DNA of 4,966 bases from a virus (Duplodnaviria; Heunggongvirae; Uroviricota; Caudoviricetes), in IMG/VR virus record IMGVR_UViG_2529292747_000018; one strand, given 5' to 3'. Each line of letters starts with the position of its first letter. Position 1 is the first letter of the stretch. Made by a program: the position numbers and the translations under genes. Of the stretch, positions 320 through 4,375 are shown one piece after another. Below the pieces are notes generated by a model. It saw only the letters and a program-made list of their open reading frames with translations, did not search any database and was not told the DNA's origin.

Positions 320-691
320 ATGCTCATAGATTTGGTTTTACCTTACCCGCCGACGGTGAACACCTACTGGCGACGTCGTGGCAGCACATATTTTGTATCA
401 AAAGCCGGTGAGCGTTATCGCCGGGCTGTGGCGCTTATTGTTCGCCAGCAGCGGCTGAAATTAAGCCTGTCCGGACGGCTGGCAATAAAAATTATTGCAG
501 AACCACCGGATAAGCGCCGCCGTGACCTGGACAACATTCTGAAAGCACCGCTGGATGCGCTGACGCATGCGGAAGTGCTCATTGATGACGAGCAGTTTGA
601 TGAAATCAATATTGTGCGCGGTCAGCCTGTGCCAGGTGGACGGCTGGGCGTGAAGATTTACGAAATCAGAGGTGGTAACGATGGCGCGTGA
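320..691 (+). CDS. rusA: RusA-family Holliday junction resolvase (crossover junction endodeoxyribonuclease)
   Basis: 123-aa ORF with GAGG Shine-Dalgarno 6 nt upstream. Contains RRRDLDN with the conserved catalytic Asp residues of RusA, plus LPxPP...N.Y.R N-terminal and GGRL C-terminal features. Sits in the nin region just before Q. Confidence 0.9.
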
Positions 692-1052
692 TATCCAGAT
701 GGTTCTTGAGCGATGGGGGGCATGGGCAGCAAATAATCATGAAGATGTAACATGGCCCTCGATAGCTGCTGGTTTTAAAGGATTAATCCCGACTAAAGTG
801 AAATCACGTCCTAAGTGTTCTGATGATGACGCCATGATAATTTGTGGTTGTATGGCACGATTAAACAAGAATAATCAGTATTTGCACGATTTGTTGGTGG
901 ATTATTACGTAGGTGGAATGACATTTATGGCTCTTGCACGTAAGCATAGATGTTCTGATGGGCTTATTGGTAAAAGGCTTTATAAAGCGGAAGGTATTAT
1001 TGAAGGAATGCTTATGGCTCTGAATGTCCGGTTAGATATGGATATGCGGTAG
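681..1052 (+). CDS. Q: Late-gene antiterminator Q, phage 21/82-type (QuuD-like)
   Basis: Protein [25 protein letters not shown]...CGCMARL...[10 protein letters not shown] matches the recalled N-terminus of DLP12 QuuD and 82-type Q proteins. ATG at 681 is preferred over the GTG at 672 given by the ORF track. Overlaps the rusA stop by 11 nt. Stop TAG at 1050-1052. Confidence 0.85.
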
Positions 1053-1172: not shown

Positions 1173-1203
1173 CAATCTTCATCATTAAATAAAAGGAGTG
1201 CTT

Positions 1204-2022
1204 ATGTGGATTGTGTTAGTACTGTCACTGTCAACTCTCAGTTGGCATAAGGTAGTGGCTTTTTCATTGTTGACGGTGTCTGTTGTCCTGGCTGTGCTTA
1301 ATGATATTATTGATTGGTCGGTGTTATTTTTTGTTGCTACAATCGTTTTTTTTATTATTTTGAAGTTCAACTGGAAATATAACGCCTGGGCTAAATCTAT
1401 ATATGAAGTTGGCATAGTTTTATCAGCCATAGCATTATTTTTCCATCTATGGCCAGGGTTTCACAATCCTGTAGTGCTAAATTCTGTTACTGTTGGCCCT
1501 CAAAGTACTCCCTATACAATGTATTTTAATTTTGATAAAGCGCTGGTGCCATTTTTGTTAGTCCTGTGTACATCTTCTTTGTTTAAAAAAGAAGTAAAAT
1601 CAGAAGTGTCTTTGTGGAAGTGGGGGGCTCTGTCGCTCTCTGTTCCTCTTATCCTGTTTTTGGCTGTTTTTTTTGGTGGATTAAAGCCAGAGATTCATTT
1701 TCCTGAGTGGTTGCCAGAGTTTATATTGGCTAATTTGTTTTTTGTGTCTCTGGCAGAGGAATCATTATTTAGAGGGTATATTCAATCACGGCTATCAGAA
1801 GTAACGTCTCCATTGGTTGCATTAATTGTGGCGGCTTTGTTGTTTGGTTTTTATCACTATTCAGGTGGTGCTTTACTTGTATTATTTGCCACGTTATCTG
1901 GTGTTGTGTATGGATTGTCATGGATGTGGAGTGGGCGTTTGTGGGTTGCCACCCTTTTCCATTTTGGTTTGAATCTGTGTCACTTGTTATTCTTTACCTA
2001 TCCATTTTTAAAACATAATTGA
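1204..2022 (+). CDS. CPBP-family (CAAX protease / Abi, PF02517-like) polytopic membrane protein on an AT-rich moron
   Basis: 272 aa from ATG 1204, with AAGGAG Shine-Dalgarno at 1193-1198 and 5-nt spacing (the ORF-track GTG at 1198 lies inside the Shine-Dalgarno). Very hydrophobic with multiple predicted TM segments. Three CPBP motifs in canonical order and spacing: EExxxR (EESLFR, 1756-1773), FxxxH (FGFYH, 1843-1857), HxxxN (HFGLN, 1960-1974). Visibly AT-rich relative to the flanking phage genes. Confidence 0.8.
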   Translation: MWIVLVLSLSTLSWHKVVAFSLLTVSVVLAVLNDIIDWSVLFFVATIVFFIILKFNWKYNAWAKSIYEVGIVLSAIALFFHLWPGFHNPVVLNSVTVGPQSTPYTMYFNFDKALVPFLLVLCTSSLFKKEVKSEVSLWKWGALSLSVPLILFLAVFFGGLKPEIHFPEWLPEFILANLFFVSLAEESLFRGYIQSRLSEVTSPLVALIVAALLFGFYHYSGGALLVLFATLSGVVYGLSWMWSGRLWVATLFHFGLNLCHLLFFTYPFLKHN

Positions 2023-2163: not shown

Positions 2164-2185
2164 CCCGCCTCTGAGCGGGTTTTTT
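2164..2185 (+). terminator. Intrinsic terminator-like hairpin (CCCGC-CTCTGA-GCGGG) followed by T6
   Basis: 5-bp all-GC stem at 2164-2168 and 2175-2179, 6-nt loop, then TTTTTT at 2180-2185. Lies downstream of the CPBP gene and the promoter-like region. Confidence 0.5.
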
Positions 2186-2308: not shown

Positions 2309-2671
2309 ATGCTGAAACAGCAGGATATGACAGAAACCGCCAGAGTTGTGTTTGATGAATTAAGCGTCACCGAACCGGCGACGGTCGGGGAGATTGCGCA
2401 GAATACGTACCTTTCACGCGAGCGCTGCCAGTTAATACTGACCCAGCTGGTTATGCGGGTCTGGCAGACTATCAGTTCGGTTGTTACAGACGCCTTCAGT
2501 CCTGAAGGCTTTTTTATTTGTGGTAAATGGGCGGCTGGTGGGTGTAAGGGGCACCCACCAGCCATCTGCTCATGCGTTGGGTTCACAAGCAAACCTCAGG
2601 CCCACTGCTTTGCGCAAAAGCAGAATGAGCCTATCAGAGACAGGCTTAATGATCCATGCTTAATACTGTAA
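2309..2671 (+). CDS. Hypothetical small protein; N-terminal ~60 aa plausibly coding, C-terminal half doubtful
   Basis: 120-aa ORF with a weak ribosome-binding site. The N-terminal part (TARVVFDELSVTEPATVGEIAQNTYLSRERCQLILTQL) looks like a small helical or HTH-like protein. The rest is translated through a textbook intrinsic terminator (2492-2519) and a perfect 12-bp hairpin (2533-2563), which argues against genuine coding. Confidence 0.25.
   Translation: MLKQQDMTETARVVFDELSVTEPATVGEIAQNTYLSRERCQLILTQLVMRVWQTISSVVTDAFSPEGFFICGKWAAGGCKGHPPAICSCVGFTSKPQAHCFAQKQNEPIRDRLNDPCLIL
2492..2519 (+). terminator. Strong intrinsic terminator (GCCTTCA-GTCC-TGAAGGC followed by TTTTTTATTT)
   Basis: Perfect 7-bp stem at 2492-2498 and 2503-2509, 4-nt loop, then a T-run at 2510-2519. 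Candidate for the Q-antiterminated late terminator tR' or an attenuator upstream of the methyltransferase. Confidence 0.6.
2533..2563. repeat. Perfect 12-bp inverted repeat GGCTGGTGGGTG / CACCCACCAGCC with 7-nt spacer
   Basis: Arms at 2533-2544 and 2552-2563 are exact reverse complements. No flanking U-run on either strand, so it is not a classical terminator. Stable RNA hairpin or protein-binding site. Confidence 0.6.
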
Positions 2672-3378
2672 AAATATCCAGTTGTGAGTTAATCAACGCC
2701 GACTGCCTGGAATTTATGCGGTCGTTACCCGAAAATTCTGTTGACCTGATAGTCACGGACCCGCCGTACTTCAAAGTGAAACCCGAGGGCTGGGATAACC
2801 AGTGGGCGGGTGATGAAGATTACCTGAAGTGGCTGGACCAGTGTCTTGCGCAGTTCTGGCGGGTGCTGAAACCTGCCGGAAGTCTTTACCTGTTCTGTGG
2901 CCATCGTCTGGCATCTGACACCGAAATCATGATGCGTGAGCGGTTTAACGTGCTGAACCATATCATCTGGGCAAAGCCGTCCGGACGCTGGAACGGGTGC
3001 AACAAGGAAAGCCTGCGGGCGTATTTCCCCGCCACAGAGCGCATTCTGTTCGCAGAGCATTATCAGGGGCCGTATCGTCCGAAAGATGCCGGGTATGAGG
3101 CGAAGGGTAGGACACTGAAACAGCATGTGATGGCCCCGCTGATTGCTTACTTTCGTGATGCGCGCGCTGTCCTGGGGATAACGGCAAAACAGATTGCAGA
3201 TGCCACAGGAAAGAAAAACATGGTGTCGCACTGGTTCAGTGCCGGTCAGTGGCAGCTGCCGAACGAAAGCGATTATCTGAAATTACAGGCACTGTTTGCC
3301 CGGGTGGCAGAAGAGAAGCATCAGCGGGGTGAACTGGAAAGCCCCACCACCAGCTGGTGGATACGTATGCCTCTCTGA
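2656..3378 (+). CDS. DNA methyltransferase (PF01555-like, beta-class N6-adenine/N4-cytosine), N-terminal fragment with DPPY motif; frame-split from the downstream part
   Basis: N-terminus LINADCLEFMRSLPENSVDLIVTDPPY carries catalytic motif IV (DPPY) in the arrangement typical of phage and ParB-linked amino-methyltransferases. The ORF ends at TGA 3376-3378 while the family's SAM-binding motif lies in the next ORF in another frame. Confidence 0.8.
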   Translation: MLNTVKISSCELINADCLEFMRSLPENSVDLIVTDPPYFKVKPEGWDNQWAGDEDYLKWLDQCLAQFWRVLKPAGSLYLFCGHRLASDTEIMMRERFNVLNHIIWAKPSGRWNGCNKESLRAYFPATERILFAEHYQGPYRPKDAGYEAKGRTLKQHVMAPLIAYFRDARAVLGITAKQIADATGKKNMVSHWFSAGQWQLPNESDYLKLQALFARVAEEKHQRGELESPTTSWWIRMPL

Positions 3379-3713
3379 ACCGACAGTATGCGGAGCTGCA
3401 GAGTGAATATAAGCATCTGCGGCGGTATTTCGGTGTGACGGTGCAGGTGCCGTACACCGATGTGTGGACGTATAAACCGGTGCAGTACTATCCAGGGAAA
3501 CATCCGTGCGAAAAACCGGCAGAAATGTTGCAGCAGATAATCAGCGCAAGCAGTCGTCCGGGAGACCTGGTTGCAGATTTCTTCATGGGGTCGGGGTCGA
3601 CAGTGAAAGCAGCGATGGCGCTGGGACGTCGTGCAACTGGCGTTGAACTGGAGACTGAACGTTTTGAGCAGACGGTGCGGGAAGTACAGGATTTAATCAT
3701 TCGTAACGGATGA
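3357..3713 (+). CDS. DNA methyltransferase C-terminal fragment (HPxxKP and FxGSGST SAM-binding motif I), same gene as 2656-3378 in a different frame
   Basis: Contains KHPCEKP and DFFMGSGSTVKAAMALGRR, the canonical C-terminal PF01555 signatures. The reading frame is open upstream of the annotated GTG start back to 3333 and overlaps the end of the N-terminal fragment, implying a single gene interrupted by a 1-nt indel or slip. Confidence 0.75.
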   Translation: MDTYASLNRQYAELQSEYKHLRRYFGVTVQVPYTDVWTYKPVQYYPGKHPCEKPAEMLQQIISASSRPGDLVADFFMGSGSTVKAAMALGRRATGVELETERFEQTVREVQDLIIRNG

Positions 3714-3829: not shown

Positions 3830-3830
3830 A

Positions 3831-3896
3831 CCGCCACTAGCTCATCAGGAAAGAACGTCACCCTGTGCGAGATTCGGAGTCCCCGGTGGCGGTCCA
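3831..3896 (+). other. Degenerate tRNA-like remnant (possible decayed argN-like tRNA)
   Basis: Perfect 7-bp acceptor-like pairing CCGCCAC (3831-3837) with GTGGCGG (3886-3892), followed by T-CCA, plus a D-arm-like TAGCTCA start and a T-loop-like TTCGGAGTCC. No foldable anticodon arm and only 66 nt long. Confidence 0.3.
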
Positions 3897-3909
3897 TTAT
3901 CGGTATTCT

Positions 3910-3986: not shown

Positions 3987-4171
3987 CACCACACTTATCT
4001 GCCCTGACTCTCTTTTGCGGGCTTTTTATTACAGGAAAGACACCGGACAGTGAAATGTTAAATGCCTCACAATTCAGGCAGTTGAATGTTGCCTGACATG
4101 CTGAGCGTTTGTTAAAAAAATTTCGCATGGTGAATCCCCCTGTGCGGAGGGGCAATCAGCAACCAGGTATA

Positions 4172-4180
4172 TGTGATAAT
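4172..4180 (+). promoter_or_regulatory. Candidate extended -10 promoter element (TGtGATAAT)
   Basis: TG at 4172-4173 one nt upstream of GATAAT (4175-4180). No convincing -35. Would start a transcript about 95 nt upstream of the terminator at 4259-4283. Confidence 0.2.
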
Positions 4181-4258
4181 CGCGGATTCAGGTGCTGATA
4201 CTGAATTCACCGGGAGGCACCCGGCACCATGCAAGAAAAAGAATGTGCATGCAAACAT

Positions 4259-4283
4259 GCCCCTCTCCGGAGGGGCATTTTTT
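4259..4283 (+). terminator. Intrinsic terminator (GCCCCTC-TCCG-GAGGGGC followed by ATTTTTT)
   Basis: Perfect 7-bp GC-rich stem at 4259-4265 and 4270-4276, 4-nt loop, then a T-run at 4278-4283. Confidence 0.6.
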
Positions 4284-4289
4284 ATGGGT

Positions 4290-4314
4290 AAAAAATGCCC
4301 GAATGGGTTCGGGC
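4290..4314 (-). terminator. Possible minus-strand intrinsic terminator (hairpin GCCCGAA-TGGG-TTCGGGC with adjacent A-run on + strand)
   Basis: Perfect 7-bp stem at 4297-4303 and 4308-4314. On the minus strand it is followed by a U-run (complement of A6 at 4290-4295). Together with 4259-4283 it forms a back-to-back terminator pair. No obvious minus-strand gene to terminate, so function is uncertain. Confidence 0.3.
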
Positions 4315-4375
4315 AATAGCATGAGATACTGATATTGTTGTGTTGTTATCGTGTGGATTTTAACCAGGGTTTATC

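Follow-up and report, generated by a model that had tools for sequence, protein, structure and literature searches.

In a stretch of Caudoviricetes DNA of 4,966 nucleotides (nt) from IMG/VR record IMGVR_UViG_2529292747_000018 (hereafter the window), an ATG-initiated open reading frame (ORF) of 120 amino acids (aa) was listed on the plus strand at positions 2309-2671, and its frame runs through two hairpins into the start of a DNA methyltransferase (methylase) gene. The locus thus raises the question of whether this ORF represents a protein, or whether the structured region in it has a function of a different kind. Both hairpins that the initial annotation had reported within the reading frame were located there: a terminator (P0; GCCTTCA-GTCC-TGAAGGC plus T-run, 2492-2519), recovered by an inverted-repeat finder as well as by a terminator scan, and a perfect 12-bp inverted repeat (P2) formed by GGCTGGTGGGTG (2533-2544) and CACCCACCAGCC (2552-2563), which are 100% complementary across a 7-nt loop. 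A perfect 12-bp repeat with a short loop would be expected, as a rough estimate, ~0.02 times per 5 kb. Based on the results given below, we consider it rather probable that three elements coincide at this locus, namely a pseudogene that is read through as an ORF, a conserved cassette composed of P0, an RNA leader and the methylase, and a limitation of methylase translation by that leader.

Comparison with relatives shows that the 120-aa ORF arises by read-through in a pseudogene and is an artefact. The gene annotated at the same place in phage phiP27, strain E2863 and an O78 strain is 198 nt long (product MLKQQDMTETARVVFNELSVT.PATVGEIAQNTYLSRERCQLILTQLVMAGLADYQFGCYRRL(QS/PQ)), and the products of relatives comprise 63-67 aa (e.g. 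MLKQQDMTETARVVFNELSVT.PATVGEIAQNTYLSRERCQLILTQLVMAGLADYQFGCYRRLQS). In the alignment, the window row carried one gap, corresponding to a G missing from ATGGCGGGT between 2455 and 2456. When this G is restored, the frame stops at the TGA at 2503-2505, the three bases with which the 3' arm of P0 begins; when it is absent, the frame remains open through P0 and most of the leader up to 2671, 16 nt into the next gene. In 22 loci from ~12 enterobacterial genera, the ORF retains 63-67 codons and ends at or in the hairpin. The earlier suggestion that only the first ~60 codons are real was therefore right as to a genuine N-terminal part, with codons 1-49 in the ancestral frame, but the ancestral gene has 65 codons and the cause is a 1-bp deletion. 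Similarly, the C-terminal half had been described as rich in Cys, Trp and Gly, and the 71 residues after the frameshift do contain 6 Cys and 6 Gly, but just 2 Trp (counted by eye).

The prophage of O157:H7 strain 86-24 contained DNA identical to the window from 2040 to ~2545, gap included, and the gene (E3169_RS18005) is labelled there by the Prokaryotic Genome Annotation Pipeline (PGAP) in RefSeq as a 'TrmB family transcriptional regulator, frameshifted' pseudogene; the frameshift has thus already been flagged. The upstream neighbours are the same in both (Q, CPBP protease, terminator), whereas after ~2545 strain 86-24 continues with a helix-turn-helix gene and the window with the methylase leader, the junction lying inside P2. 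Of 5426 complete E. coli genomes, 359 matched a 50-mer spanning the gap at a coverage of at least 80% (361 when matches of any coverage are counted), in a single copy each and mostly in O157:H7, as opposed to 0 of 50,697 phage records. The deletion is therefore real, inherited and confined to resident prophages.

Within a collection of 5.8 billion proteins, matches extending past residue 49 consisted of clusters of 1-5 sequences, and the shift point was different in each of the five small clusters that were read out. The large clusters read (400-1900 members, the largest with 1869) end in ...GCYRHLQS or ...GCYKRLQ. Full-length 120-aa homologues conserved across phages had been named beforehand as the observation that would speak for a real protein; none was present among the protein-database matches or the clusters read out, and insertions and deletions in relatives break the frames through the hairpins, so that an open plus-strand frame over the leader was found in 37/93 sequences only. 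The locus calls for some caution in annotation, as a mechanical ORF call presents as one 120-aa 'protein' what is in fact a pseudogene, a terminator and an RNA leader, and similar read-through tails have already been deposited in protein databases.

The part of the ORF that follows P0 belongs to a leader adjoining the methylase. The stretch matching window positions 2520-2655 was strikingly conserved across ~12 enterobacterial genera. In a set of viral contigs anchored on the methylase (80 fetched, 79 of them with upstream DNA), the leader was found immediately 5' of the methylase start in 79/79 loci, whatever the upstream gene. Among 16 non-Escherichia loci, nucleotide identity was higher in the leader (86%) than in the small gene upstream (70%) or the first 600 nt of the methylase (76%). 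Leader lengths of 143, 144, 145 and 146 nt were observed, reflecting single-base insertions and deletions, and because the lengths differ by single bases the leader is non-coding.

A covariance model (R1) was built from 93 distinct leaders. It matched the window on the plus strand at 2518-2661 (138.6 bits, E 3e-32) and detected one plus-strand copy per locus, with its end at the start of the methylase, in 29/35 loci searched, and none elsewhere; a minus-strand match at 2512-2579 (16.8 bits) is a mere reflection of the palindrome. In Rfam 15, the region 2490-2660 gave no plus-strand match at E<=1. One minus-strand match, to P26 (24.3 bits vs. a gathering threshold of 36, E 0.07), was sub-threshold and was taken as chance. 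The core sequence of the leader was not found in print in a literature search by sequence string. The leader is apparently an undescribed structured RNA family of a known regulatory kind.

P0 and P2 were both conserved in relatives from the ~12 genera. In the methylase-anchored contigs, a GC hairpin was located 13-16 nt before AATGGGCGG in 72/73 distinct upstream contexts, with a mean folding free energy (dG) of -11.1 vs. -7.3 kcal/mol for shuffles, yet the stems of these hairpins are unrelated in sequence among contexts and the upstream gene differs. In many of these contigs the upstream gene is not the winged-helix type of the window, and sometimes another terminator stands immediately upstream. 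The recurrence of the hairpin in 72/73 contexts with unrelated stems shows P0 to be the 5' element of the methylase cassette, and is the strongest kind of covariation. P0, the leader and the methylase form one conserved cassette.

In the window, P0 has the form of an intrinsic terminator, with a stem of 7 bp including 4 GC pairs (GCCTTCA 2492-2498, TGAAGGC 2503-2509), a 4-nt loop (GTCC), and then TTTTTTATTT (TTTTTT at 2510-2515 followed by ATTTG), and a dG of -10.5 kcal/mol. Thirteen terminator-like sites were counted in the window, vs. 5.1 ± 2.3 in shuffles. The T-run after P0 is intact and canonical in the Escherichia and Enterobacter lineages; elsewhere it is interrupted and reads TTTCTGCTG, TATCTGCTG or GAATCTGCTG. 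Judging from this form, termination at P0 in the window is likely, although the hairpin may have further functions.

The leader has two conserved and mutually exclusive pairing schemes, here called folds A and B, one of which lies over the start region of the methylase. P2 is the invariant core helix common to both. Its outer 7 pairs were 97.5% paired over the 93 sequences, including one pair that varies as UA52/UG31 and one C-G to U-A double change. In fold B, which is the minimum-free-energy structure of most homologues, helix H1x extends P2 into a long hairpin (99.6% paired over the 93 sequences), and an anti-start helix (2580-2590 / 2644-2655) spans the 12 positions (-1 to -12) that precede the methylase AUG at 2656. 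The anti-start helix was 96.3% paired in the 93 sequences and 95.2% in an independent set; within it, pair 66:144 occurs as AU57/GC19/GU4 and pair 74:135 as AU91/GC1/GU1. Fold B as a whole was 94.4% paired in the 93 sequences and 97.2% in the independent set (54 distinct), vs. 20-43% in slid controls. On reading the sequence, no Shine-Dalgarno motif was seen before the methylase AUG. A GATC site (2651-2654) stands directly 5' of the methylase ATG, as TGATC[C/T]ATG, in 93/93 leaders, inside the anti-start helix.

Fold A is a three-way junction of P1, P3 and P2 that excludes both H1x and the anti-start helix, and its helix P3 shares positions 2588-2590 with the latter. It was 96.0% paired vs. 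15-44% in slid controls. One P3 pair occurs as AU33/CG25/UA23/UG10 with 1 unpaired (92/93 paired), and P1 shows one G-C to A-U double change. Two sequences bear on both folds at once: in L112 an A-to-G change at alignment column 74 is matched by U-to-C in the fold-A and in the fold-B partner, and L016 has a G.U intermediate in both partners. For the four sequences computed, the two folds were 0-5.5 kcal/mol apart. Variants compatible with G.U pairs are frequent in the helices (UG31, GU90, GU76, UG10), so that the structure exists on the plus-strand RNA only. RNAalifold alone returned fold B only, with almost no covariation term; fold A was spotted by eye and then tested. In both folds the pairing is kept, with some covariation, although few positions vary.

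The gene controlled by this leader would be the methylase. Both of its halves matched Pfam N6_N4_Mtase, and it belongs to the beta-class N6-adenine enzymes of the M.EcoGI/M.EcoGII family. The window copy is frameshifted through the loss of one A from the A-run of GGAAAAG at ~3338, and otherwise differs by 3 bases from the intact 352-aa gene of E2863; a 50-mer spanning this deletion had matches of >=99% identity in 26 records of complete E. coli chromosomes or plasmids. After repair, the ~350-aa product contains the motifs DPPY and then FMGSG (FxGxG), and is identical at 332/352 residues (94%) to the enzyme of the Stx2 (Shiga toxin 2) phage 1720a-02, which is very similar to M.EcoGII (Murray et al., PMC5778455). 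The window methylase is accordingly classified by sequence as M.EcoGI/M.EcoGII type, an assignment made via the 1720a-02 enzyme. M.EcoGII itself is a non-specific adenine methyltransferase that is unexpressed in the lysogen and deleterious when expressed constitutively (PMC5778455). The window gene belongs to the same family as M.EcoGII and M.EcoGI described in that work (PMC5778455) but, unlike the named enzymes, is frameshifted. Because both the small gene and the methylase carry frameshifts, the cassette is decaying in the window. A search for a solved structure of an M.EcoGII-type enzyme returned none, only distant beta-class methyltransferases. In PMC5778455 the word 'upstream' has 0 occurrences, and no upstream sequence is mentioned; the conserved, apparently undescribed leader in front of this family is the useful result. 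Enzymes of this family methylate adenine in any context, are silent in lysogens and are toxic under constitutive production (PMC5778455).

The small gene that precedes P0 in the window matched phrog_331 (1.9e-37), whose function is unknown. Its name 'TrmB' originates from PGAP: the intact 65-aa protein scored 17.4 bits with Pfam TrmB (PF01978), under the gathering cutoff of 25.6, Pfam TrmB, MarR and HTH_24 were all below threshold, and in NCBIfam the only match was to Lrs14, also sub-threshold. The AlphaFold model of an intact homologue (predicted local distance difference test, pLDDT, 83.7) consists of three helices followed by a beta-hairpin wing (H4-25, H33-40, H44-56, E60-63, E66-69), and Foldseek retrieved generic winged-helix domains, such as that of the IclR-type regulator 2g7u (template-modelling score, TM, 0.75; root-mean-square deviation 1.2 Å over 59 residues). 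The intact 65-aa protein is thus predicted to be a minimal winged helix. On the model, the shift occurs where the recognition helix ends, and the wing would be lost in the window allele.

In phage Mu, the start of mom, a toxic DNA-modification gene, is hidden by a stem-loop, which is opened by the small protein Com. The window resembles com-mom in having a small gene directly upstream of a host-harming DNA-modifying enzyme and a leader that can pair over the translation start of that enzyme; Com, however, is a zinc-finger RNA-binding protein, as opposed to the predicted winged helix of the window. An obligatory role of the 65-aa protein as a Com-like activator was considered and is weakened by the presence of the leader and methylase in phages without the small gene. 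Upstream of the small gene, a block at 2244-2296 is conserved across genera (CTTGCTG, 17 nt, then CAGAGTTAT..GTNTGTCAC); a -35 element is plausible in it, with no acceptable -10 hexamer, and a sigma-70 promoter scan found none inside 2023-2656.

Given that M.EcoGII acts non-specifically, is silent in the lysogen and is deleterious if constitutive, tight post-transcriptional control of the methylase is plausible, and a gate on its translation is the most likely role that we infer for the leader. Fold B, in which P2 is extended by AUGGGC/GCUCAU, would occlude the region 5' of the methylase AUG through the anti-start pairing; in fold A the AAGC segment would pair upstream in P3, P1 would close the junction and the start region would be free. 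The balance or the timing of the two folds would then limit translation of an enzyme that is toxic when constitutive, and translation would occur only briefly on new transcripts, before fold B has formed, or when some factor favours fold A. P0, in turn, would probably stop stray upstream transcription in the lysogen, and would probably be read through by the Q-modified polymerase. Complete Stx phages carry the cassette after the Q antiterminator and ahead of the tRNA and stx late genes, and phages P27 and 1720a-02 carry it directly upstream of stx2; because of this position in the Stx late transcript, the terminator and leader could also influence how much transcription reads through into the toxin genes. 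The two-fold model leads to directly testable mutations.

In phage MS2, translation of the maturation-protein gene is under kinetic control through long-range pairing in its 5' leader. As in the MS2 leader and in translational riboswitch platforms, two exclusive pairings share a strand in the window leader, one of them occludes the start, and the folds are near-isoenergetic. Unlike in these systems, no aptamer-like invariant pocket was identified, and no sequence or Rfam relationship exists.

Several observations weigh against the combined explanation adopted here. Termination at P0 and translational control are both inferred, and the two-fold model names no factor that would flip the switch. 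H1x shows one-sided changes only, and the support for P1 comes from one lineage, whose two changes can equally be read as improvements of fold B. More generally, the covariation rests on few positions in a highly conserved leader; in the independent, model-fitted set, the percentage of paired positions and the covariation score were reached by 20 and 11 of 500 shuffles, respectively, and such controls overstate significance because the sequences are related. Nucleotide conservation extends beyond the paired bases, suggesting an additional constraint, e.g. a bound factor, for which the two-fold model has no explanation. Finally, many lineages have a poor T-run, so that termination may not be the primary role of P0.

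Among the other explanations, the one that survives best, while still unlikely, is that the leader acts mainly as an element of RNA processing or stability, P2 and H1x serving for example as an RNase III site that separates the methylase-tRNA transcript. P2 and H1x do form a nearly continuous helix of ~18 bp, tRNA genes follow the methylase, so that the transcript needs processing, and lambda N and int are established examples of phage genes under RNase III control. Such a role would nevertheless leave unexplained both the conserved complementarity of 2580-2590 to the bases before the AUG and the covariation in P3, which competes with the anti-start pairing.

The initial annotation had read the region as an RNA regulatory element, either an attenuator or a tR'. 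The general part of that proposal stands, as a conserved structured RNA lies downstream of the terminator; to the specific identities we would give only a small chance. P0 would then be the phage tR', which ends the short PR' transcript and is overridden by Q, or the terminator arm of an attenuator gating the methylase, tRNA and late genes, in keeping with its textbook intrinsic-terminator form and with its location between Q and the tRNAs, which in P27 and 1720a-02 also places it upstream of stx. Lying downstream of Q and upstream of the late genes, P0 must therefore be passed by the Q-modified polymerase. However, PR', the short RNA and tR' come immediately after Q in the Stx phages that have been characterised (PMC7547250), and a terminator nearer to Q than P0 is present at 2164-2185. 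In phage 1720a-02, a block GTTAAGAGTGGTTACTTCGCC...AAACCCGCCGCGAGCGGGTTT-T-run is found within ~70 nt after the Q stop, and the same Q-linked block plus terminator (GTTAAGAGTGGTTAYTTCGCC...hairpin-T-run) occurs at 2136-2185 of the window, in phiP27 and in a Salmonella prophage. In the window and phiP27 an extra gene, for a CPBP protease or a GIY-YIG nuclease, intervenes between Q and the block and looks like a moron insertion. The block with the terminator at 2164-2185 is likely the PR'/tR' unit of this Q type, a putative one in which the promoter itself was not located; since the block follows Q directly in 1720a-02, as PR'/tR' do in Stx phages, this terminator is the better tR' candidate. 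The 65-codon gene separates the Q-linked block from P0, which would at most form a second barrier in the late transcript.

An attenuator fares no better: the stems of P0 vary freely and so are unable to form the pairing with the conserved leader that attenuation would require, many lineages have a degenerate T-run, and the only candidate leader peptide (2527-2547) is stopped at codon 4 in three lineages; the structured RNA itself looks like a translational leader, not a classical attenuator. As in the lambda 6S RNA and StxS PR'-tR' transcripts (PMC7547250) and in STnc100, P0 is a predicted intrinsic terminator downstream of Q in a lambdoid late region; unlike in the lambda-type setting, it comes after a protein-coding gene, as a second terminator after the Q-linked block, and the STnc100 copy of the window, with its own terminator, lies elsewhere (4096-4289). 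The region is not mentioned in the Pas/STnc100 preprint or in the pR' comparative paper. The invariant start of the leader, AAUGGGCGGCUGGUGG, reads AUG GGC GGC UGG UGG GUG UAA at 2527-2547 and encodes MGGWW, in a frame that is unconserved in other lineages. Leader-peptide attenuation of the trp type was accordingly considered for this MGGWWV* with its tandem Trp, and was rejected on the stop at codon 4 in L021, L043 and L161 and the widely varying length. The conserved Q-linked block, (T)GTTAAGAGTGGTTAYTTCGCCRCAYAGCTT plus terminator, was noted at 2100-2185 of the window, at 2384-2480 of L189 and at ~2440-2540 of L001.

A similarly slim chance is given to the possibility that the P1-P2-P3 junction is a new class of sensing riboregulator, binding a small molecule (S-adenosylmethionine or S-adenosylhomocysteine, as a guess) or a phage or host protein and freeing the methylase start only in lytic growth. 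If true, it would explain the silence of M.EcoGII-type genes in lysogens. A three-way junction is indeed present, though it matched no known riboswitch class in Rfam.

A function of the conserved stretch at the level of DNA, for example as an operator bound by the winged-helix protein or as a hot spot of recombination, is very improbable; the hairpins would then be incidental palindromes. Three mosaic junctions fall exactly at P2, and a small protein of DNA-binding type is often encoded just upstream; but the G.U-compatible changes listed above, which dominate the variation in the helices, would give A.C mismatches in a DNA cruciform or on the opposite strand, the leader persists in loci that lack the small gene, and the covariance model matches the plus strand only. 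That the 120-aa ORF is a real protein, with a C-terminal half that only incidentally lies on structured DNA, is scarcely credible: the frame is open, with an ATG and a purine-rich stretch before it, and phrog_331 aligns over residues 1-76, pointing to read-through tails in some deposited phage proteins, but relatives end at codons 63-67 and differ by the 1-bp gap, the identical allele is marked as frameshifted by PGAP, matches past residue 49 form clusters of 1-5 members with differing shift points in those read, the leaders of relatives vary by 1-3 nt with 37/93 having any open plus-strand frame, and the 120-aa product has no Pfam match.

According to ORF, promoter/terminator, tRNA, Rfam and Pfam scans, the window represents the Q-to-late-gene region of a lambdoid, Stx-phage-like prophage (Table 1).

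Table 1. Positions of the genes, RNA elements and sequence changes described in the window.
Feature	Positions	Strand	Evidence or details
DUF968 gene, 3' end only	window start		
rusA	320-691		
Q antiterminator	672-1052		Pfam PF06530, E 9e-52
CPBP/Rce1-like intramembrane protease gene	1198-2022		AT-rich/low GC
Intrinsic terminator, upstream	2164-2185	+	CCCGCC-TCTGAG-GCGGG + T6, terminator scan
120-aa ATG ORF	2309-2671	+	ORF listing
Gene of the predicted winged-helix protein, codons 1-49; sole ancestral-frame part of the 120-aa ORF	2309-2455	+	phrog_331
1-bp deletion site	2455/2456	+	ATG^GCGGGT in relatives vs. ATGCGGGT in window
Out-of-frame rest of ancestral gene	2456-2505	+	would encode (A)GLADYQFGCYRRLQS; TGA stop 2503-2505
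P0 hairpin + T-run	2492-2519	+	arms 2492-2498 / 2503-2509, loop 2499-2502
Leader RNA, non-coding, ~135 nt	2518-2655	+	covariance model R1
P2 perfect hairpin	2533-2563	+	12 bp, 7-nt loop
Fold B helix H1x	2527-2573	+	AUGGGC 2527-2532 / GCUCAU 2568-2573
Fold A, P1 + P3 around P2	2528-2604	+	P1 2528-2532 / 2600-2604; P3 2565-2570 / 2588-2593
Fold B anti-start helix	2580-2655	+	GGUUCA 2580-2585 / UGAUCC 2650-2655; AAGC 2587-2590 / GCUU 2644-2647
Fold B inner helices		+	GGCCCA 2599-2604 / UGAGCC 2626-2631; hairpin P4 2605-2611 / 2617-2623
DNA methyltransferase, frameshifted	2656-3713	+	ORFs 2656-3378 and 3357-3713
tRNA(CAU) + tRNA-Arg(UCU)	downstream of methyltransferase		
STnc100 small RNA	4096-4289	+	Rfam 157.6 bits, E 2e-36; end at terminator 4257-4278
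AgvB small RNA	4290-4351	-	Rfam 96.5 bits
Sialate-esterase-type gene, start only	end of window		

A DNA search with the region gave matches in 23 phage records and in 2157/5426 complete E. coli genomes, and no complete E. coli genome matched more than 76% of the window in a single piece. The window is a mosaic of O157-like segments in which both genes of the cassette are inactivated. Three independent mosaic junctions were located at P2 (2533-2563 in the window; 3031-3070 in L004; L029; L107): O157 86-24 diverges inside the 3' arm, the L029 type after the 5' arm, and L107 is a hybrid with a partial duplication. P2 looks like a recombination boundary between phage modules.

The CPBP/Rce1-like gene, placed between Q and the presumed late promoter block, has promoter-like sites of its own (1113-1185) and looks like a typical moron. 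In five relatives (L029, L065, L087, L099 and L100), the winged-helix gene almost abuts an STnc100-like region, without methylase or tRNAs. The spacer between the two tRNA genes (3830-3909) is 80 nt long and GC-rich, with complementary ends (GCCAC...GTGGCGG); it may be a degenerate tRNA, though uncalled by ARAGORN, and relatives have a third tRNA (Arg) in the corresponding region. The STnc100 and AgvB genes have a convergent orientation and occupy the interval between the tRNAs and the esterase gene.

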